The notes under the pieces: generated by a model
Seen by the model: the letters and a program-made list of their open reading frames with translations, nothing else
Database searches by the model: none
What the model was told of the DNA's origin: nothing
Program-made: the position numbers and the translations under genes
Part shown: one piece after another, positions 21,359 to 30,540 of the stretch
Numbering within the stretch: position 1 is the first letter of the stretch
How the letters are laid out: every line of letters starts with the position of its first letter
Virus record (IMG/VR): IMGVR_UViG_3300042879_001731
Length of the DNA: 35,579 bases
Reading direction: 5' to 3' (one strand)
Origin: an uncultured virus (IMG/VR IMGVR_UViG_3300042879_001731)
Taxonomy: Duplodnaviria > Heunggongvirae > Uroviricota > Caudoviricetes

Positions 21359-21560
21359 TACAGAATGTTTTATTGTACCACTTCATTGCTTCATATTTCT
21401 TTCTATCAGCTTCCATTTCAGCCTCTAAATCAAATGGAATAGATGCATTTTCATAGAACACTTTATGAGTAGTTATGCTCCTATCTCCATTTTCAAACAC
21501 GTGTATGTTTGTGTCTTCAAGATATATAATACCTTTAAACTGAATGCTGTTATTTGTCAT
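21345..21560 (-). CDS. Hypothetical protein between groEL and groES
   Basis: 71 aa, overlaps both neighbours. Confidence 0.5.
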   Translation of the reverse strand: MTNNSIQFKGIIYLEDTNIHVFENGDRSITTHKVFYENASIPFDLEAEMEADRKKYEAMKWYNKTFCNARD

Positions 21561-23136
21561 CTTGTCTCATATTAGTTACAACAACCTCAGTAGATAGTAT
21601 AGTAGTGGCTACAGACACAGCGTTTTTAAGAGCACTCTTAGTTACCTTAGACGGATCTATAACTCCCATCTTAACCATATCTCCATATTTATCGTTCTTT
21701 ACGTCATACCCAAACCCATATACATCTTTGTCAATTATAGGCTGTGATACACTAACTTTATCCAAACCTGCATTCTCAACAATACGAGCAAATGGTGCGG
21801 TAAGTGCCGTCTTTATTATGTCAACGGCAGCCTGATAGTTTATGTCCTCAGCGTTGTCCTTTATCCTCTGAGAGGCATTGATAAGAGCAATACCACCCCC
21901 TGGCAAGATGCCTTCCTCAATAGCTGCAGCTACAGCTCTAACAGCGTCATCAACCCTGTCATACTTCTCCTTCTGCTCAATGTCACTATTGGCCCCTACA
22001 TAAATAACTCCAACACCTCCATCAATATTAGCTATCCTCTCTTGTAAAAACTCCTTCTCATACTGCTGCTTTACCTCAGAATGCTTGTTCTTTATAGACT
22101 CCAAATGCTGATTAACCTCCGTGTCATCAACAGCGTCATGTCGCATGATAATAGTTCTATCCTTTGACACAACTATCTTTGCAGCTCTACCCAACCCATC
22201 AAAATCAATTAGTGACAAATCGTCACCAGTTGACTCAGAATAATATCTAGCACCCAAAACAATAGATAAATCCTTCATCAAATCAGCCTTTCGCCATCCC
22301 ATACTAGGCGGCTGAATATGGCATGCCTTAATATTTCTCTTGGCAACATTCAAATTTAACGCGTTTAACGCGTTCGCGCTCAAATTGCCAATAATAAGTA
22401 TAGGTCGGCCCTGCTGAATGACAGGCATCAAAGCCTTCTCTATAGACTGTAAGTTGTTTATCTCTACATCAGACAGAAGAACATATGGGTTGTCTAACAC
22501 ACTCTCCTCAGTCTCCTCATTTGTGATGAAATACTTACTAGACCATCCCCTGTCGATCTTCATGCCGTGAATAATGTCAATATAGGTTACCGGAGTAGCA
22601 GAGTTCTCCACAGTAACAACGTTAACCTGCTTGAACGCGTCAGCAATAAGGTCTCCAAGCTCCTTGTCATTGTTTGCCGAGATAGCTGCAACGTCATTTA
22701 GTAACTTTTTAGTTACCTTCTTAGATAACTTCTTGTCCAAAAACTCAACAATACCGTCAGTTATCTTGTTCATATGACGAATAACCTCAGTTCGGTTGTG
22801 CTCCTCATCAATATACTCGTCAGCAGCATCTATCAAAGCCTCCGTCAGTACAACGCTAGTTGTCGTTCCATCGCCAGCAACAGTTGATGTCCTGTCAGAT
22901 GCCTGCCTAACCAACTGAACAGCCAAATTCTCCACCGGATCAAATAAATTTATAGTCTTAGCAACAGTAATGCCGTCCTTCGTAACTGTAATACCACCAA
23001 TATGATGCTCTGACTCCAGTAATACAGTCTTGCCTCTAGGTCCTAACGTGCTGCCTACCGCCTTAGCGATCTTGTGAATGCCATTTCTGAGCTTATTTTG
23101 CCCAACATTGTCGAAAAATAACTGCTTAACTATCAT
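21550..23136 (-). CDS. groEL: Chaperonin GroEL (cpn60)
   Basis: TLGPRG, TKDGITVAK, AGDGTTT, PGGG, GVIDPSKVTKSAL; lacks the GGM tail. Confidence 0.97.
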   Translation of the reverse strand: MIVKQLFFDNVGQNKLRNGIHKIAKAVGSTLGPRGKTVLLESEHHIGGITVTKDGITVAKTINLFDPVENLAVQLVRQASDRTSTVAGDGTTTSVVLTEALIDAADEYIDEEHNRTEVIRHMNKITDGIVEFLDKKLSKKVTKKLLNDVAAISANNDKELGDLIADAFKQVNVVTVENSATPVTYIDIIHGMKIDRGWSSKYFITNEETEESVLDNPYVLLSDVEINNLQSIEKALMPVIQQGRPILIIGNLSANALNALNLNVAKRNIKACHIQPPSMGWRKADLMKDLSIVLGARYYSESTGDDLSLIDFDGLGRAAKIVVSKDRTIIMRHDAVDDTEVNQHLESIKNKHSEVKQQYEKEFLQERIANIDGGVGVIYVGANSDIEQKEKYDRVDDAVRAVAAAIEEGILPGGGIALINASQRIKDNAEDINYQAAVDIIKTALTAPFARIVENAGLDKVSVSQPIIDKDVYGFGYDVKNDKYGDMVKMGVIDPSKVTKSALKNAVSVATTILSTEVVVTNMRQDDK

Positions 23137-23187
23137 ATTTAATTTAATTTAGGTGCAAAACTAATGAAATTTACTAAATAATTCCAA

Positions 23188-23499
23188 TTATTTACTAGGA
23201 ATTAAATTATCAGCCCTGTTATTATAATAATCTCCATCTCTTCTTATATACTTGCCATCATGATTATGGAATATCGACACAACCAACCTGGGTATAGACA
23301 TACTTGTCCTCTTTCCATCATCACTCACAAGATTAACATACATCGCTCTAGACCTATTAAAAGTAGGCTTCAAAATAAACTCCTTGCTTATGCGATGAAA
23401 CTTGTCACTGTCAAATTTTCTCTTCAGAGATTTTACCTCCCCAAAGTTTGATACCTTGTAATTTGAAAAACCAGGTATCGGCCTCCACATCTTAATCAT
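23188..23499 (-). CDS. NUMOD4-domain protein with a degenerate HNH remnant
   Basis: WRPIPGFSNYKVSNFGEVKSL; C-terminal DGDYYNNRADNL without the catalytic His. Confidence 0.75.
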   Translation of the reverse strand: MIKMWRPIPGFSNYKVSNFGEVKSLKRKFDSDKFHRISKEFILKPTFNRSRAMYVNLVSDDGKRTSMSIPRLVVSIFHNHDGKYIRRDGDYYNNRADNLIPSK

Positions 23500-23605
23500 T
23501 GTTTTGCGTTTTACTACTCGCGCTTAAAATGAAAAATGAGGAAGGAGTAAACGCTTCACCTTTTCAGTTGGGGATCAATCCAACCTATCCTCACATGCAA
23601 ATGTA
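23500..23605 (-). ncRNA. Candidate three-way-junction cis-regulatory leader (copy A)
   Basis: TACATTTG promoter; P1 TGAGG/CCTCA, ATA, P2 GGTTGG/CCAACT, GAA, P3 AAGG/CCTT. Same architecture as 29426-29494. Confidence 0.6.
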
Positions 23606-23662
23606 ACAACTTTTAGTCAAGTGACAACTTGCTTGGATTCTTTTGACCCTTGAAATTTTCTT

Positions 23663-24322
23663 TTAATCCCATGATGCAAAGGTGGTGATTTTATTTCCTT
23701 TTCTTAAATTCTCATCTGCCCATAGTGGCTGTAGGTTGGTGTAATGGTTCAACTGTAACAAATGTTGCTCGTCTTTTGCTTTCGACACTGGGTATATGTG
23801 GTCGATATGCCAATATCCATGATTCTCCCACGTCATGCCAGGTTTGAATAAAGATTCAAAGTAAGCTTTAAATGTTTCATATTCGCATCCGAGTATGTCG
23901 AACGTGTGACTTTTCTTTTTGTAACCTTGTTTTTTTATAACTGCTTTTATTAGTGATCTTATATTGCATCTCATTCTAAAGTCAACATCCATAGCCATTC
24001 TATTTCGTTTGTATATTCTGTTGTATTCTTTTTTTGAATTACATTTTATTTTTTCTACTACTGGCTCTAATGTCTTTCTTAATTCATATTTTTTTAAATA
24101 TCTATTCTTTTTTACTACTTCTTCCTTTCGTGATTTTTTTGCTAAATCAAGAGCATGTCTATTTTTGTAAGACTCTTTATTTTTTTCTTTGTGTAATTTG
24201 AAATAATTAGACATGCATTTTCCACAATGATTATATCTACCGAATGTTGACGAATCATGTTTTTTAAATTCATCTAATAGTTTTTCTTCGTTGCACTTTG
24301 TGCATTGTTTAAATACCCACAT
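23663..24322 (-). CDS. HNH endonuclease with N-terminal CxxC...CxxC zinc finger (likely start MWVFKQC at 24322)
   Basis: CTKC...CGKC; WHIDHIYP...NHYTNLQPLWADENLRK. Confidence 0.85.
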   Translation of the reverse strand: MWVFKQCTKCNEEKLLDEFKKHDSSTFGRYNHCGKCMSNYFKLHKEKNKESYKNRHALDLAKKSRKEEVVKKNRYLKKYELRKTLEPVVEKIKCNSKKEYNRIYKRNRMAMDVDFRMRCNIRSLIKAVIKKQGYKKKSHTFDILGCEYETFKAYFESLFKPGMTWENHGYWHIDHIYPVSKAKDEQHLLQLNHYTNLQPLWADENLRKGNKITTFASWD

Positions 24323-24431
24323 AATAAAAAATCCTAACAGAATCCAATAGGGTCTCACGTCTATTTTCATCTATTAGGATAATAATGTTTTACAAAGATA
24401 CTATAGTGAGACCGTATCCACAACAAATATA
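24323..24431 (-). ncRNA. Candidate kissing-loop leader RNA of the HNH gene
   Basis: Two hairpins whose loops carry the complementary sequences GGTCTCAC and GTGAGACC. Confidence 0.6.
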
Positions 24432-24467
24432 CAAAATATTATGTTACAAGTACACGAAGTGTTGGCC

Positions 24468-24766
24468 CTGACGGATAAAATGCTCATTTCCAAGCACATT
24501 GACGGAACGAGTATGATTCACTGACGGATTTTCACCAGTATTTACTGGTATACTGACGATATGACGATAAAACTCCAGTTATTATATATATATTATACTT
24601 TTATACCTATTTACCTATTCTATTTAACATAATATTTATTTTTTCTAACCGCTCAATAGGAAATTATCGTCAACTCGTCAAGAACCGCATAAACAGTACA
24701 AAAAACCGTCAGTAGATCATACTTGCTTCGTCAAGATTGTTGATTATCAGCACTTTATCCGTCAGC
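24468..24766. repeat. Symmetric TGACG repeat array around an AT-rich core (origin-like element A)
   Basis: TGACG at 24469, 24500, 24522, 24554, 24562; CGTCA at 24668, 24676, 24707, 24729, 24760. Confidence 0.75.
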
Positions 24767-25097
24767 CAACTAAAAATATAATTTTAATAATTAGCAGATT
24801 CAAATGAAATTCATAATAATCAGCAAAATCCTCAGGCTGGTAAAACTCAAATCCGACATTCAGACCTGTCGGTATCATGTTGTGTATCTCTATAGTCATA
24901 CAACAAAGTTATATATTTTGACTGCATATGCGGAGGGTTTGGATAATATACCCATTTCACGTGATGACCCGTCAAAAGAAAACGACATGAATTTCGCATG
25001 GGGGGTATCCATTTCAAAACTTTCGGCTGAACTTTTTGGCTTTTTGTCTGAGGGGTGTGCCTGTAGGCATGGCTATTTGTTGCACGACCGCCCCTGC

Positions 25098-25203
25098 GGT
25101 ATACATGTCGCGCGCTAGGTATGTGTGTATGCATGTGTATGTGAGCGCATGTATGCCTGTGTGTACGCATGCACGCACGCGCGCCCAGTCGCACGCACGC
25201 GAG
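25098..25203. repeat. Mostly alternating purine-pyrimidine low-complexity tract
   Basis: GTATGTGTGTATGCATGTGTATGTG...GTGTGTACGCATGCACGCACGCGCGC. Confidence 0.7.
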
Positions 25204-25574
25204 ATCTGTAGTCCGTTTCACTTTGTAACCATGTCGACGGAATGCAAGTCTATTTAACATAATGTTACAATGCATGAAGTTAGATTAACATGACTGCCGT
25301 TCGTACTGAATTGCTGACGAAAATTCCGCCCGTTCGTTTTACGCGTTTATACGTCTGAAGGGAAGGAATAACCCCACCCCTCTACCTATCCCTCTTTAAA
25401 CCCATTTAACGCGCTTACATACGCGCGCACGCGTAGGGAGGTCTAACTATCTGATTATCAATATCAAAGCAATGTAATGCAAAATTACTTTATTATTCGT
25501 CGAAATAAATGTATTAATTCATCGATGAAAATATGCCATTCGTCTAAAAAAGTAAAATATTTTCGTTGATATCC

Positions 25575-25604
25575 TTGCAAGTGTTAAAATCTTGCCTACC
25601 TTTG
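25575..25604 (+). promoter_or_regulatory. Early promoter, TTG(-33)...TACCTTTG(-7)
   Basis: TTGC at 25575 and TACCTTTG at 25597-25604; Bacteroidetes primary sigma consensus. Confidence 0.7.
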
Positions 25605-25821
25605 TTTCAAGCAAACGAGCTAAAAACATCAAAAGTCTAAACGTAATTAAAAGGGGGTGACAAAGCCCACCACGGAACAAGACGAGATAAGCAAGTTTGA
25701 AATTCTTTGAAATATTGTAACATGCGTTTCCTGAGGTAACACCAAGGGACAAACAAAGAAGCCCGATGAGATATCGGTCAAGGCTTTGATTAAATGGTAA
25801 CTTTTCACGCATGGGGTTACG

Positions 25822-25870
25822 CCGTCACAAAGTGAGTACTTTGTCTGATGAGTTCAAAAGAACGAAACGG
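25822..25870 (+). ncRNA. Type III hammerhead ribozyme; predicted cleavage after C25826 (GUC)
   Basis: Stem III CCGT/ACGG; stem I ACAAAGT-gagt-ACTTTGT; core CTGATGA; stem II GTTC-aaaa-GAAC; core GAAA. All conserved nucleotides are present. Confidence 0.92.
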
Positions 25871-25898
25871 GTTAACAAACAATTTAAATTTTTGAGTC

Positions 25899-25961
25899 AT
25901 GTGGATTATATTAATAGTTTTATTTGCCTATGTAGGTAAGTTAATAAATGAGAGTAAATAA
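25899..25961 (+). CDS. Possible 20-aa membrane peptide MWIILIVLFAYVGKLINESK
   Basis: Shares the TTTGAGTCATG start context with the next gene. Confidence 0.4.
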   Translation: MWIILIVLFAYVGKLINESK

Positions 25962-25979
25962 CAATAAATTCTTTGAGTC

Positions 25980-26687
25980 ATGAAAGCAATTTTTAGAAAT
26001 GAGAATACTATTCAGGTATTCAGATTTGACACTACGTCAAACGACAAAATCGAAGCTAACAAGAAAAGAAAGATAGTTCAATCGTATACATTCAGTCATA
26101 AACAATACGAACTAATTTTAAACGGCACAAATGAGGGGATGCGAATGTTTTTCAGCAATGCCGATAGTAATTGTTTAGACTGTCCATTCAACGAATTTGG
26201 AAAATGCTATACGCACAAGTTCAATCAGTATGTCGGATTTGTATCCATGCTCAAAAGTATAGCTTCAGAGTATGGACAATTTGAAAACATCCCGACATTT
26301 AGCCGTGAAATTCACAGACAAATAGTAAAGATGTCACAGGGAACTTACGTTCGATTTGGGACATATGGCGAACCATCTATACATCCATTGCAATTAATAA
26401 AGGACGTTATCAAGGTAGCTAATAACCATACTGGTTATACTCACCAATGGGACAAAAAACCTGAATTATCGTCGGTATTCATGGCATCAACACATGACGC
26501 AGTTAATGAACGCATTGCAAGAGACAAGGGCTTCCGTTCATTCATTGCTACAGACAAGCCAATTGAGGGGGCTGTAAATTGTCCCGCTAGTAAGGAATCC
26601 GGATACAAAAGTCACTGCTCAAAATGTGGTTTGTGTAGTGGTTCGGAGGGCAAAGGAAACAAATCGGTTTACATTTTAATGCATTAA
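25980..26687 (+). CDS. Cys-rich putative Fe-S protein (radical-SAM-like / gp88-like early phage protein)
   Basis: CLDCPF....CY, VRFGTYGEP, GYTHQW, CPAS...CSKCGLC. Confidence 0.6.
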   Translation: MKAIFRNENTIQVFRFDTTSNDKIEANKKRKIVQSYTFSHKQYELILNGTNEGMRMFFSNADSNCLDCPFNEFGKCYTHKFNQYVGFVSMLKSIASEYGQFENIPTFSREIHRQIVKMSQGTYVRFGTYGEPSIHPLQLIKDVIKVANNHTGYTHQWDKKPELSSVFMASTHDAVNERIARDKGFRSFIATDKPIEGAVNCPASKESGYKSHCSKCGLCSGSEGKGNKSVYILMH

Positions 26688-26690
26688 GTC

Positions 26691-26870
26691 ATGAAATCAG
26701 TCAGCAATTACGAATACACGACGAGGGCAAAGGTCATCAACAAGGATATGCCCTCATACGGGAAGATAGTTAACATAATTAAGAAGGTCAATAGGTTTAA
26801 ATATCTGATAGAGTATACGCCTGGGGGTCGGTCTTACTACATGGATGTAGATAGTTTGGAATTAATTTAA
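26691..26870 (+). CDS. Small hypothetical protein (59 aa, not in ORF track)
   Basis: MKSVSNYEYTTRAKVINKDMPSYGKIV...DSLELI fills the gap between neighbours. Confidence 0.6.
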   Translation: MKSVSNYEYTTRAKVINKDMPSYGKIVNIIKKVNRFKYLIEYTPGGRSYYMDVDSLELI

Positions 26871-26882
26871 ATTTTAGAAATC

Positions 26883-27116
26883 ATGGAATTAAGTAGAGAG
26901 ATTGCAATAGCAAACGCAAAGTTAGTATTGAAACAAGCGGGATATTTTGTAGATAATTTGTGGACAATTCAAGATGTCCAGGATAGGTTTGAGTGCGATG
27001 ATAATACCGCGCAAGGTATATTGTATGATGCGTTAACGAATGAATATATTATAGAGAGAATATTTTCTCAGATAATAGATTATGCTGAATGTGAAAACTT
27101 AAAAGAAAAGGAGTAA
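26883..27116 (+). CDS. Hypothetical early protein
   Basis: 77-aa ORF with the repeated start motif. Confidence 0.7.
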   Translation: MELSREIAIANAKLVLKQAGYFVDNLWTIQDVQDRFECDDNTAQGILYDALTNEYIIERIFSQIIDYAECENLKEKE

Positions 27117-27140
27117 AAATAAATTTAAAATTTAGAAAAT

Positions 27141-27521
27141 ATGGGATTTTTTAGTTGGAAGACAGTTGATACTGGCAAGAGTATTGCCAATACATATTCA
27201 AGAAAGAAGACGTTCACGGTGTTCATGGTTGCACCTAGCAATGGCTACGATGCATTGGAGGTATTCCGTGAGGACGACTACAATGGCTATGGTATATTCG
27301 GTGGCAAGGACTACTATGAATTGTTAGCAGAGATTAATGGGTTCACTGAGAAGGATGATTGTGAACTTAGGGATGTAGGGATCAATTTAGAGTTTCATCC
27401 CGAAAAATTTAATTTAGATAAACCAATTATTTTTCCGCAGTTATTTGAGGCCGTTCCGATTAGAGAGATAAACTTTGAGGTTAAGCCGCCTAGCTGCCCA
27501 GACCAAGGATATTTTTATTAA
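27141..27521 (+). CDS. Hypothetical early phage protein
   Basis: MGFFSWKT...YNGYGIFGGKDYYELLAEIN...CPDQGYFY. Confidence 0.75.
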   Translation: MGFFSWKTVDTGKSIANTYSRKKTFTVFMVAPSNGYDALEVFREDDYNGYGIFGGKDYYELLAEINGFTEKDDCELRDVGINLEFHPEKFNLDKPIIFPQLFEAVPIREINFEVKPPSCPDQGYFY

Positions 27522-27535
27522 TTAAACTTAGGTAC

Positions 27536-27727
27536 ATGAAAAAATTAAAAGACATCAGAGAAGGAGCTATAGTTAGATACAGAAATAGCAACTTAGAGTA
27601 TTACATCAGAGGAAAAGCTAAAAATGGGCGTGTACATCTTAAGTGTTTTACGCTTATACATGAGAGATACTCTCACTTGGATTGCTATCCGAAGAAAGAA
27701 GAGAACGTTGAACTATTTAAATTTTAG
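27536..27727 (+). CDS. Hypothetical protein
   Basis: 63-aa ORF within the operon. Confidence 0.6.
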   Translation: MKKLKDIREGAIVRYRNSNLEYYIRGKAKNGRVHLKCFTLIHERYSHLDCYPKKEENVELFKF

Positions 27728-27732
27728 AAATC

Positions 27733-27957
27733 ATGAGAGAGAAAATTTTGCAAAAAGGAGGCCGTATTTTTTCGGTTACCTTCATTAAGAAAGATGGAAC
27801 GGTTAGACGAATGGCAGCAAGGTTGGGAGTTCGTAAGGGAGTTAAGGGAGTAGGCTTAAAATTCGATCCTTCAGAACGTGGTTTAATGGTTGTGTTTGAT
27901 ATGCACAAAAGAGAATTTAGAATGATTAATTTAAACACTATAATTGAATTGAGATGA
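27733..27957 (+). CDS. SH3-like / WYL_2 (DUF2693-like) protein
   Basis: FSVTFIKKDGTVRRM...VVFDMHKREFRMIN pattern. Confidence 0.65.
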   Translation: MREKILQKGGRIFSVTFIKKDGTVRRMAARLGVRKGVKGVGLKFDPSERGLMVVFDMHKREFRMINLNTIIELR

Positions 27958-28241
27958 AAGCGAGTATAAAAATATCTAGTTCGTATGGATTCGATCATAA
28001 CTGGACTTTAGTAATTGAGACAAGCAAGAAAGCATATTCTTTCTATCTAGGTCAAGATGTAAAATTTTGCAGTAGAGTCTTAGGAATGGACACTTCTTAT
28101 ATAGTTAGAAAAATAGGCACGCGCGAAATAAGTGAAGGCCAAAATGGAAATGAAAAGCTTGCCAGGTTTATATGCAAGGAATTGCAAGTTAACGGAAGGA
28201 ATGCAAGTAAATTTGAAACGTGGGCATTTTGCGCTCAATAA
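27954..28241 (+). CDS. Hypothetical protein
   Basis: 95 aa, ATGA-coupled; FYLGQDVKFCSRVLG. Confidence 0.7.
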   Translation: MKASIKISSSYGFDHNWTLVIETSKKAYSFYLGQDVKFCSRVLGMDTSYIVRKIGTREISEGQNGNEKLARFICKELQVNGRNASKFETWAFCAQ

Positions 28242-28333
28242 AATTCAAGAATCATGACCGAACAAACGCACCATTTGTTGAATGGTATTGGGTGGAGTAG
28301 TAATAAATGAGTATTAAAATTAAAATTAAAATT

Positions 28334-28891
28334 ATGAAAGTTAAAACATTTTTACCGTTATTTAGTGGCTTCTATGGGTCAAACTGGGATGACCCTTGTT
28401 TCGATGGGGAAGATGAATATTTCGATTTACCGGAAGGCACGGAGTTTTGGGAGTATGTTGATTGGGAAAGATACCATCATCAGATAGCTAATAAAATGTG
28501 CGAAGAGATAGGATGGCTTCTGTCTGATTTTGTTAATGGAATTGAATTCGAATGCATAAGCAGTCCGAAGTACTACAACTTTGAAAATGATGCAATACAC
28601 TGCGATATTGACTTTAATAAGAAGTTAATAGAGTCATACATAAACGCAAATAAAGATGCCTTTGACAATTATATTAAAGATAGATACACTAGTCGCGACG
28701 GATTCATATCTCACTATGAGAATGAAGGAAGTCAATTTTTGGATGGATGGCAAGATGACAGTCACAAGGTAGGTTCTGTGTTGCAATTTATTTGTGAGAA
28801 CGAAGGATATGAAGAGCCTTATTATTTGGATGATTGTCATATAAGCATGTTTTATAAGGAAGAAATTTACCAGTATGAAAGATCTATTTGA
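28334..28891 (+). CDS. Acidic, aromatic-rich early protein (likely start MKVKTF)
   Basis: FSGFY...SPKYYNFENDAI...YTSRDGFIS; very D/E-rich. Confidence 0.7.
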   Translation: MKVKTFLPLFSGFYGSNWDDPCFDGEDEYFDLPEGTEFWEYVDWERYHHQIANKMCEEIGWLLSDFVNGIEFECISSPKYYNFENDAIHCDIDFNKKLIESYINANKDAFDNYIKDRYTSRDGFISHYENEGSQFLDGWQDDSHKVGSVLQFICENEGYEEPYYLDDCHISMFYKEEIYQYERSI

Positions 28892-29096
28892 AACCCCAGA
28901 ATTAATACCGAACGAAATACAAGCGATTTTAGACACTATCGATCAAGATGCCGACCAATATGTCGAACTGACTAGGATAGTGCGAGAGATCGAGCCTTTA
29001 GGGTATACATTCGATTTCTACCTAGATGCCGAGCCATTTGGCTTACGGCCTATTGATATTGATTTATGTCAGTTGGAAGGATGGGAGGATGTTTAA
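28875..29096 (+). CDS. Small acidic hypothetical protein
   Basis: DLFETPELIP...GYTFDFYLDAEPFGLRP. Confidence 0.7.
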   Translation: MKDLFETPELIPNEIQAILDTIDQDADQYVELTRIVREIEPLGYTFDFYLDAEPFGLRPIDIDLCQLEGWEDV

Positions 29097-29114
29097 AGCA
29101 TGATTGTGAACGTT

Positions 29115-29401
29115 TACCCCTTTCAGATTAACGTAACTAATTGACTAACAACATTTTGTTAAAAATCCCTGACAAATTGTACCCCTTTCAGTGACGGTTT
29201 TTTTTCTGATTATCAGGCAGTTTGACGGTTTGAATATAAAACTCTATTCATTGTACGTAAAAATGGAAAAATAGATATATAGGTATAATAATATGTAATT
29301 ATATATAATATGTAGAACTTTATCATCAAATCGTCAGAAGTATAGTGTTTATGCGGAAATATCCGTCAGTAAAAGGGGTAAAGTCCGTCAGAAACCGTCA
29401 G
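29115..29401. repeat. Second TGACG array around an AT-rich core (element B), inverted homolog of element A
   Basis: TGACG at 29192, 29223; CGTCA at 29332, 29364, 29386, 29396; TACCCCTTTCAG at 29115 and 29180. Confidence 0.75.
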
Positions 29402-29414
29402 GAATGTTTTTTTG

Positions 29415-29530
29415 TATCTTTGTGAGATAGGGATAGGGTTGGAGTAGCTACCAATTCGAAAAGGCGTTTGTCACACGTTTTCGCTTTCCCTATTTTCAAA
29501 GAAACGTGTTCATTAAAAGTGTGTGACATG
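29415..29530 (+). ncRNA. Promoter plus candidate three-way-junction leader (copy B)
   Basis: TATCTTTG 29415-29422; P1 29426-32/29488-94, P2 29436-42/29451-57, P3 29461-66/29482-87. Confidence 0.6.
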
Positions 29531-29890
29531 ACAAAGCAAAAATGGAAACCCATTCCAGGGTGTAGCAACTATGCGATAGGATCGTATGGTCAAGTTAAAC
29601 GTCTTCGACATAGAGCGAGGGGAAAGAATCATAAAATTTTAAAGGAGCAAATTGTAAAACAGATATACGATAGGTATTGGAAGCCAACTGTTCGTATCAT
29701 TGGTGACGATGGGAAGCAACACCAATTAAGCGTGGAAAAATTAGTCATAACTCAATTCCTTGAGCCAGGACGAATTTACTATAAAACTACGGCCGACAAT
29801 ATGGTAAACAGAATTGATCGGTACGTTGACGCTGATGCGTATGAGAAGATGAAGTATAAACCTAACAGATATAAAATAGTAAAGACATGA
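29528..29890 (+). CDS. NUMOD4-domain protein without HNH (start MTKQKW at 29528)
   Basis: WKPIPGCSNYAIGSYGQVKRL. Confidence 0.75.
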   Translation: MTKQKWKPIPGCSNYAIGSYGQVKRLRHRARGKNHKILKEQIVKQIYDRYWKPTVRIIGDDGKQHQLSVEKLVITQFLEPGRIYYKTTADNMVNRIDRYVDADAYEKMKYKPNRYKIVKT

Positions 29891-30540
29891 AAATAGGAAT
29901 TTACAAAATTGTTTCTCCTGACGGTAGTGTGTACATAGGCCAATCGGTAGACATGGAAAAGAGATTTGCTCAACACAGGCGAAACAGATCGAAAGATTAT
30001 AGCAAGTTAAAGAGTTCATTTAATTATTACGGCCCGTATAACCATAGGTTTGAGATATTGGAGGAATGTAAAACAAAAGAATTAAACGAAAGGGAAAGAT
30101 ATTGGTTTAATCATTATTCTGAAATGGGTTGCGACATGTTAAATTCTGTTTCAATACCATCAGGTGTAACAAAGAAAGGAGGCAGAACTAAATGGGTTAA
30201 AATTCCAAGATGCGAAAACTTTGTGATTGGATCTAACGGAAAAGTTAAAAGGTTAAAACATAGATCTACTGGAAAGCTTTACAGGATACTAGACGAAATG
30301 ATGGTAGAACCACAAGTAAATAATTCGAAAGTTGCGTATGTAAATATAACCACCAACGAGGGAAAGCAAAAGGTATTTGCATTGCAAAAGTTAGTTGTTA
30401 AAACATTTCTAACTCCAGGCAGAATTTACTATAAGACAGCAGATAATCCTCTTATAAATAGCGTTAATGTATTTATAGACTCAGAGGATTATACTAAAAT
30501 GAATTACAAACCACAAATTTTTAAAACTATTAAGACATGA
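29887..30540 (+). CDS. GIY-YIG nuclease fused to a NUMOD4-like domain
   Basis: GIYKI...VYIGQS..R..H...E; the C-terminal half is paralogous to the 29528 protein (FLxPGRIYYKTxxN). Confidence 0.85.
   Translation: MKIGIYKIVSPDGSVYIGQSVDMEKRFAQHRRNRSKDYSKLKSSFNYYGPYNHRFEILEECKTKELNERERYWFNHYSEMGCDMLNSVSIPSGVTKKGGRTKWVKIPRCENFVIGSNGKVKRLKHRSTGKLYRILDEMMVEPQVNNSKVAYVNITTNEGKQKVFALQKLVVKTFLTPGRIYYKTADNPLINSVNVFIDSEDYTKMNYKPQIFKTIKT

Follow-up and report, generated by a model that had tools for sequence, protein, structure and literature searches.

A conserved three-helix leader RNA ahead of homing-endonuclease-type genes in gut and freshwater phages, with predicted pseudoknot control of translation

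The window analysed here is the whole 35,579-nucleotide (nt) stretch of an uncultured virus of the Caudoviricetes (IMG/VR record IMGVR_UViG_3300042879_001731). It carries two copies of a leader RNA that folds as a three-way junction, copy A on the minus strand and copy B on the plus strand, each placed between a TAnnTTTG motif, which in name and role we take to be a Bacteroidota-type promoter, and a short open reading frame (ORF) with a NUMOD4 domain. The plan of the RNA is helix P1, a conserved AUA, helix P2, a conserved (U)GAWAA and helix P3, which directly abuts P1′, the 3′ strand of P1. A first-pass annotation of this DNA had read a TAnnTTTG motif followed by P1-AUA-P2-GAA-P3-P1′ in both copies, and that layout is borne out at the positions below. 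The P3 loop is called L3, and the stretches complementary to it in the spacer before the ATG are called docking sites; scores are from the covariance model R1, described below, and folds are minimum free energy (MFE) folds.

Copy A, minus strand:
23605-23598, minus: promoter motif TACATTTG (TAnnTTTG), read from the sequence
23532..23598, minus: leader RNA, three-way junction (R1 73.6 bits, E 1.1e-18; MFE fold)
23594/23593-23589 paired with 23541-23537/23536, minus: P1
23588-23586, minus: AUA joining strand
23585-23580 (GGTTGG) paired with 23571-23566 (CCAACT), minus: P2
23579-23572, minus: P2 loop ATTGATCC, with the palindrome GATC inside
23562-23557 paired with 23547-23542, minus: P3, with one T.T mismatch
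23556-23548, minus: P3 loop L3 AAGCGTTTA, complement of both downstream sites
23526-23520, minus: docking site 1, TAAGCGC, 7 pairs to L3 with one G.U, 20 nt 5′ of the ATG
23515-23506, minus: docking site 2, AGTAAAACGC, 6 nt 5′ of the ATG
23499-23497, minus: ATG

Copy B, plus strand:
29415-29422, plus: promoter motif TATCTTTG (TAnnTTTG), read from the sequence
29423..29497, plus: leader RNA, three-way junction (R1 59.1 bits, E 1.4e-14; MFE fold)
29426-29432 paired with 29488-29494, plus: P1
29433-29435, plus: AUA joining strand
29436-29442 (GGGTTGG) paired with 29451-29457 (CCAATTC), plus: P2
29443-29450, plus: P2 loop AGTAGCTA, with the 6-nt palindrome TAGCTA inside
29461-29466 (AAGGCG) paired with 29482-29487 (CGCTTT), plus: P3
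29467-29481, plus: P3 loop L3 TTTGTCACACGTTTT
29502-29509, plus: docking site 1, AAACGTGT, pairing with the 3′ part of L3 (-10.1 kcal/mol)
29516..29528, plus: docking site 2, AAAGTGTGTGACA, pairing with the 5′ part of L3 and taking in the A of the ATG
29528-29530, plus: ATG

Folding of each single sequence returns the three-way junction for A and for B, and an R1 scan of the window gives A 73.6 bits and B 59.1 bits, against 8.8 bits for the runner-up. The complementarities between the P3 loop and the start region that had been claimed for A and B are present in both. In copy A, AAACGC of site 2 forms 6 contiguous pairs with L3, and more if one bulge is allowed, (AGTA)AAACGC; in copy B, site 2 forms 13 pairs with L3, 11 of them Watson-Crick (-13.8 kcal/mol), and includes the start-overlapping L3 complement TGTGTGACA at 29520-29528.

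Homologues of the leader occur in viral contigs, metagenomes and two cultured phages, 50 distinct sequences in all. A pattern derived from the shared P2 core found at least 80 loci in viral contigs; among the matches listed, 35 have the promoter-leader-ORF layout when judged by eye, and the remaining loci are, by the same judgement, chance matches within genes. A tighter pattern gave 78 metagenome loci, of which about 36 are true by eye; run over one genome per prokaryote species it gave 28 loci, none of which by eye has a promoter, P1 and P3 arms and an ORF behind. Two narrower scans of viral contigs returned 2 loci, one true and already in the set, and 11 loci, none true. Together the pattern scans yielded 25 distinct leaders. 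One without an ORF behind it (L043) and two with inexact promoter motifs (L010, L042) were excluded, and R1 was built from 22 distinct leaders. R2, the refined model, matched 14 of 80, 12 of 80 and 12 of 80 loci in three partly overlapping sets (240 protein-anchored loci) that encode relatives of the downstream proteins, which means that most NUMOD4-HNH genes lack the leader. Scans of 20 whole phage records gave 24 matches. Parabacteroides phage PD491P1 has one copy, ahead of a gene annotated as DNA endonuclease I-HmuI, and Bacteroides phage C3_41T2LP has two; two leaders per record are found in five records (the window, G006, G007, G009 and phage C3_41T2LP). Among the candidates scored, R2 found no match in three Bacteroidota genomes or in 151 sampled genomes from the order of the Bacteroides acidifaciens genome G019, in which leader L179 lies. 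In 50,697 phage records, distant-mode blastn found nothing that matches either window copy and its gene. Two lake-water metagenome runs, one of which may be the source, cover the window almost completely; among the runs listed as containing it there is no RNA run. The carriers are gut and freshwater phages.

Across these homologues the leader is about 60-75 nt long and its 3′ end always lies about 25-50 nt upstream of an ORF. The strands that join its helices, AUA and (U)GAWAA, hardly vary across the family, and the helices change by compensation. From a plain MAFFT alignment of the 22 seeds, RNAalifold predicts P1, P2 and P3, with compensatory changes at 6 of 13 pairs. In the model-fitted alignment A9 (53 matches, 50 distinct rows), 94.7% of 912 cells are standard pairs, and both partners have changed at 16 of 19 pairs (203 cells). 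None of the five measures is reached in 500 shuffles, and pairing falls to 37.6-56.6% when the 3′ partners are shifted by 1-3 columns. Pair counts from alignment A8 (42 distinct rows) show the same trend. P2 arms are exchanged wholesale among lineages (GGTTGG/CCAAC, GTTCGG/CCGAA, GAAAGG/CCTTT, GGGCGG/CCGCT, TTGAAGG/CCTTCAA). With compensatory changes in all three helices, the leader is a conserved structured RNA family of three helices, as had been claimed from the two copies; the first-pass annotation had named a lack of homologues with compensatory changes as one outcome that would refute its reading, and the search returned such homologues. A TAnnTTTG motif lies no more than 40 nt upstream of 42 of 49 distinct leaders. 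In 41 of 43 motif-bearing leaders the outermost paired nucleotide of P1 is 0-11 nt after the G of the motif, and in the other 2 it is 1 nt before; from this placement the RNA would begin at or near the transcription start.

L3 differs wholly in sequence between lineages and is nevertheless matched to the message that follows it. We distinguish 18 L3 families, with loops such as AAGCGTTTA, AAGCCAACA, TTRCCGAAT, ATGCARCCA, AAGCCTATC, CTCAGTG, GTCGAAA and TAGGCATGA, and in every one the A/U-rich spacer between leader and ATG carries two L3-complementary stretches. The end of site 1 is 14-29 nt upstream of the ATG, and that of site 2 at most 12 nt upstream, mostly 0-9, with the closest ones reaching into the ATG (-3). 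By duplex energy, which took over from a length-only helix statistic, spacers pair best with their cognate L3 in 18 of 18 families (13 of 13 on a smaller set), with a mean two-site sum of -17.6 kcal/mol for cognate combinations against -5.1 for 306 non-cognate ones, and for 13 of the 18 families no more than one loop shuffle in 200 equals the observed value. Among 40 distinct L3-site duplexes there are 12 G.U and 1 A.C, two mismatches that the scoring weighs alike, which points to pairing in sense-strand RNA and not to a protein site in duplex DNA. A third L3-complementary site was sought within 1.5 kb and none was found, just scattered 7-mer matches at chance level. The two sites use overlapping parts of L3, so that one loop cannot bind both. 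The covariation of L3 with start-proximal sites, proposed from two copies, thus extends over 18 loop families; the 'competing partner' described for copy B is present, but it is no peculiarity of B, two docking sites being the rule throughout the family. In all 18 families the loop stays complementary to the initiation region while its sequence changes, which would place the RNA among translation-controlling leader pseudoknots, a functional class and not a family by homology. Unpaired probabilities for L3 and the sites (0.58, 0.40, 0.53) come from a nested-only partition function, which is uninformative on pseudoknot pairing.

The P2 loop holds a second rule, one that the first-pass annotation does not contain. 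All 19 distinct P2 loops include a palindrome of at least 4 nt and 14 of 19 one of at least 6 nt, where shuffled loops average 9.0 and 2.1, respectively, and 0 of 2000 shuffles reach the observed counts. The list of longest palindromes has 12 distinct entries. Its hexamer cores, among them TAGCTA, TAATTA, TGGCCA, TCGCGA, TCATGA, TTGCAA and TGTACA, are all of the form U-NNNN-A and usually have one to three unpaired letters on their 5′ side; shorter palindromes are GATC, CATG and AGCT. Switching from one hexamer to another needs paired changes and so amounts to covariation of the sequence with itself. No second copy of the palindrome was found at a fixed nearby place in cis, and the dyad of the palindrome does not coincide with the one formed by the P2 arms, which means that loop and arms do not make one coherent DNA palindrome. 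That the loop stays self-complementary while its sequence changes (19 of 19) is what would be expected of a kissing loop, and suggests loop-loop pairing between two RNA copies as the simplest reading. In the records with two leaders, the palindromes differ in four of five and the L3 loops in five of five.

The genes behind the leaders are mostly homing endonucleases, and those in the window are shortened relatives of them:

23188..23499, minus: ORF behind copy A, 103 amino acids (aa), NUMOD4 only (Pfam NUMOD4 E 3.1e-12)
29528..29890, plus: ORF behind copy B, 120 aa, NUMOD4 only (Pfam NUMOD4 E 3.5e-05)
29887..30540, plus: GIY-YIG nuclease ORF (Pfam GIY-YIG E 8.2e-11)

Among 12 representative downstream proteins, 11 match NUMOD4 and 10 match HNH_3, and some add AP2, NUMOD1 or an I-HmuI NUMOD-like domain; most downstream genes are free-standing NUMOD4+HNH_3 homing endonucleases of 147-205 aa. 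The two window ORFs (103 and 120 aa) and a 103-aa ORF behind another leader, L060, align to the N-terminal part only, and the window forms end inside or before the HNH motif of the full-length proteins. The 103-aa form ends inside that motif, with DH replaced by RR; its recurrence in L060, 76% identical, shows that it is not a newly decayed gene. The association with NUMOD4 genes noted earlier therefore stands in that the leaders mostly precede NUMOD4-HNH genes, while the 'stand-alone NUMOD4' genes turn out to be shortened forms of these. The stop of the copy B ORF overlaps the start of the GIY-YIG ORF (ATGA), so the two are probably co-translated, and together they may be a two-piece homing endonuclease with separate, translationally coupled DNA-binding and nuclease parts.

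Three leaders precede genes of other kinds: one in phage C3_41T2LP is ahead of an HTH_36 protein, one is ahead of a NUMOD1 protein that also matches GIY-YIG weakly (17.8 bits, under the Pfam cut-off), and one is ahead of a protein of 322 aa whose matches to DUF723 and to zinc fingers are weak. The RNA thus goes with homing-endonuclease-type cassettes generally and not with NUMOD4 as such, which weakens the earlier idea of a NUMOD4-specific RNA-protein module. The C3_41T2LP leader (L448; record 51603-51991) is complete, with a UAGCUA loop and matched sites, before a 93-aa HTH_36/DnaD_N-like protein; as it precedes a non-nuclease gene, the leader can be recruited to other genes. In some gut-phage contigs intact leaders are followed by no ORF of at least 40 aa (L043) or by ORFs of 55 aa (L044) and 134 aa (L033), and in such copies the leader seems to outlive its endonuclease gene. 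A wastewater-run contig from a relative at 85% likeness, not the same phage, retains 23246-23620, the leader and the N-terminal coding part; 23160-23245 is exchanged there for 883 different letters, and 52 letters stand where the window has 23621-24465, a stretch that contains a 235-aa ORF (23663-24370) without a Pfam match. These breakpoints fit a cassette whose upstream edge is the promoter.

We favour, with moderate confidence and on sequence evidence, the reading that this is a new 5′-leader family of Bacteroidota-phage homing-endonuclease-type genes that would control translation initiation through a pseudoknot and form dimers through the P2 loop. The leader and its own promoter would travel as a single unit ahead of free-standing homing-endonuclease-type genes. 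Bacteroidota hosts largely do without Shine-Dalgarno initiation; L3, docking on the spacer sites as a pseudoknot, would cover a ribosome landing region that has no Shine-Dalgarno sequence, and the blocked region would keep synthesis low for a nuclease whose excess is dangerous. The leader probably throttles translation of selfish nuclease genes in this way. Most likely the palindromic P2 loops would let two leaders kiss, and the dimer would present two L3 loops to two sites, with repression rising as transcript concentration rises. One L3 does not suffice for two sites, and a kissing dimer would unite all three conserved features. We infer the direction of the effect on translation, the dimerisation and the exact transcription start from these patterns. 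More tentatively, and with doubt prevailing, the leader could be a self-addressed RNA regulator with two codes, the P2 palindrome for dimerisation and L3 with its two sites as the address, that works as an RNA-only dose sensor: as transcripts accumulate, homodimers would form, both L3 loops would clamp both sites of the message, and nuclease synthesis would be switched off. Both codes being freely re-writable, several cassettes could share one phage genome without cross-talk, and such an element, if real, would be a naturally modular, programmable RNA-RNA regulator spreading with selfish nuclease genes.

To our knowledge, control of the level of free-standing homing endonucleases is known for a few T4-type genes and for none in Bacteroidota phages. 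The leader is compact, strongly covarying and widespread, it moves with homing-endonuclease genes, and two cultured carriers bring it within reach of the bench. For a leader in a bacterial virus, two traits are unusual: a loop whose palindrome persists through sequence change, and a variable loop with two matching sites at the start codon. It could serve as a small, re-addressable expression-control part for Bacteroides and Flavobacterium, and as an annotation marker for the 5′ boundary of homing-endonuclease cassettes.

Several observations weigh against this reading or narrow it. Folding energies of the two copies are ordinary (z -1.16 for A and -2.51 for B; 0.00 and -1.71 with the spacer), and the case for a structure beyond chance rests on the homologues. 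There, the pair counts come from alignments fitted to the model and are biased towards it, and many leaders are closely related, so that cell counts overstate how many events were independent. The outermost P1 nucleotide is just -1 to 3 nt from the promoter G in 16 of 43 leaders, and in these the outer pairs may precede the start of the gene's own transcript. Concerning L3, some families have a weak second site (L365, L292) or weak statistics: loop shuffles equal the observed value in 32 of 200 cases for L365, 11 of 200 for L358, 7 of 200 for L449, 4 of 200 for L292 and 1-4 for one more family. The length-only helix count discriminates poorly, with 16 of 156 non-cognate pairs at least 7 pairs long and helix-length shuffles equalling the observed value in 307 of 1000 (L346) and 711 of 1000 (L365) cases. 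Site 1 of L255 has an A.C mismatch, and L364 apparently has an uncompensated loop change that breaks one site-1 pair (read by eye). The two sites often share flanks outside the L3 complement, for example AATCACTGAGG twice in L395, which could reflect a protein site or a recent duplication. Finally, if site 1 bound first and more strongly, occupation of site 2 would be hard to explain without a second L3.

Other explanations account for parts of this evidence. The leader might be an attenuator-derived small RNA, in which P1 and the U-rich run that follows P1′ in most members (for example CCCCGTTTTTCTT and CCTCATTTTTCATTTT) form a branched intrinsic terminator. Most transcripts would then be released as a free RNA of about 75 nt which, perhaps as a dimer, would use L3 to act in trans on both sites of messages that read through or begin upstream. 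Two target sites and a palindromic loop would suit a bivalent regulator of that kind; we nevertheless think it unlikely, as the U runs are interrupted and are missing in some members (L389, L365), and a consensus terminator scan, blind to branched stems that close a multiloop, placed no site at either window copy. A host or phage protein, or a small molecule, could also bind the junction (AUA, GAWAA) and P2 and select the L3 site, making the leader a true switch. The junction letters and much of P2 are indeed more conserved in sequence than pairing requires, with invariant columns, and two mutually exclusive docking sites resemble two switch states. Joining strands of just 3, about 5 and 0 nt leave little room for a pocket, and a NUMOD4-specific partner is made unlikely by the three copies that precede genes without a Pfam NUMOD4 match; we regard such a switch as rather improbable.

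L3 and the two sites can also be read as DNA, as three copies (one inverted, two direct) of the binding site of the encoded DNA-binding nuclease or of a phage regulator. I-TevI sets a precedent, with an operator similar to the homing site serving to repress the enzyme's own promoter (PMC2988022), and flanks that the two sites sometimes share beyond the L3 complement would suit a protein site. Against this stand the 12 G.U to 1 A.C on the sense strand, which a duplex-DNA site should give equally, the spacing between sites of about 13-19 nt (read by eye), the position of the elements downstream of the promoter, the occurrence of the same L3, AAGCGTTTA, with different proteins and of different L3 loops with near-identical protein types, and the leaders of this plan that precede unrelated proteins; an operator is accordingly quite improbable. 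Least credible to us is a mere 5′ stabiliser, a junction that shields the message from decay at its 5′ end and whose loop-site matches are by-products of duplication: the structure does sit at the extreme 5′ end, as the distances of P1 from the promoter G given above show, but the 18 of 18 cognate loop-site matches, the G.U bias and the palindrome rule would be left unexplained.

The leader corresponds to no known RNA family that we compared. The Rfam check suggested for it found no match to Rfam 15 at the gathering threshold in the whole window or in 16 related loci; at E<=10 the two copies give chance-level matches only (ceN22, BtsR1, GlsR6 and RT-11, 9.9-14.1 bits against cut-offs of 45-143.5). 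In hammerhead ribozymes, helices I and II are joined by a CUGANGA core and helices II and III by GAAA, and the RNA is cleaved after helix III; here nearly all members have AUA, not CUGANGA, between P1 and P2, and no hammerhead model appears even at E<=10. HEARO/omega RNA was rejected likewise, with no match in Rfam, which presumably includes a HEARO model, and with downstream proteins of 103-322 aa (NUMOD4/HNH_3, GIY-YIG-like, HTH) that show no RuvC among the Pfam matches listed. A bridge or guide RNA does not fit sites that lie on the same transcript beside the AUG, with no further site within 1.5 kb, and a small ORF in the leader does not fit changes that are compensatory in the helices and not codon-wise. 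ARAGORN finds no tRNA or tmRNA gene in the window.

Likeness to known systems lies in single features. In the ColIb-P9 repZ and IncB repA leaders, too, a hairpin loop pairs beside the start region of the downstream gene; there the pseudoknot activates translation and an antisense RNA opposes it, whereas here there are two sites and no antisense partner is seen. The HIV-1 dimerisation initiation site shares a loop of 7-10 nt with a self-complementary hexamer, 1-3 unpaired 5′ letters and lineage-specific palindromes; it belongs to a retroviral genome and not to a bacterial-virus messenger RNA leader, and here some members have just a 4-nt palindrome and the dimer is predicted from sequence. GIR1, ahead of the I-DirI ORF, is likewise a three-way-junction and pseudoknot RNA at the 5′ end of a homing-endonuclease message, but this lariat-capping ribozyme is about 190 nt long, derived from a group I intron and catalytic, while in the leader nothing suggests catalysis and no Rfam model matches. 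HEARO/omega RNA (IscB) and IS110 bridge RNA resemble it as RNAs beside a mobile-element nuclease gene, with variable loops complementary to nearby sequence; they are 150-300 nt long, guide a protein to DNA and go with RuvC/HNH or DEDD enzymes. For T4 homing endonucleases, PMC2988022 describes translation limited by RNA structures that sequester the ribosome-binding site: I-TevI, I-TevII, I-TevIII, segB and Aeh1 mobE likewise have an RNA structure just ahead of the ORF and a gene-proximal promoter, an arrangement thought to limit translation. The T4 structures are simple hairpins that hold the Shine-Dalgarno sequence, are idiosyncratic to each gene and occur only on read-through transcripts, unlike the conserved three-way junction, loop-to-spacer pseudoknot, two docking sites and palindromic loop here, and there is no homology of sequence or structure. 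The leader most resembles leader pseudoknots and the T4 hairpins in function, and its design, a junction with a self-complementary loop and a re-writable two-site loop, is new. We found no description of it in the literature searched; PMC8040213 lists thousands of gut RNA candidates, and its main text names no HNH or homing endonucleases, while its supplementary tables might list gut members.

Two further observations concern the surroundings of the window copies. A Cpn60/GroEL-type chaperonin of 528 aa (21550-23136, minus; Pfam E 1.5e-60) lies directly downstream of the copy A NUMOD4 ORF on the same strand. Upstream of copy B is a 320-nt gap (29097-29420) with CCGTCAG on its right side at 29331, 29364, 29386 and 29395 and the complement TGACGG/CTGAC on its left at 29169, 29192 and 29223; between the two sets, at about 29271-29314, is a palindromic core of A and T only. 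The arrangement resembles an origin or a regulatory region with several sites. The L060 leader also has CGTCAG just upstream of its promoter.

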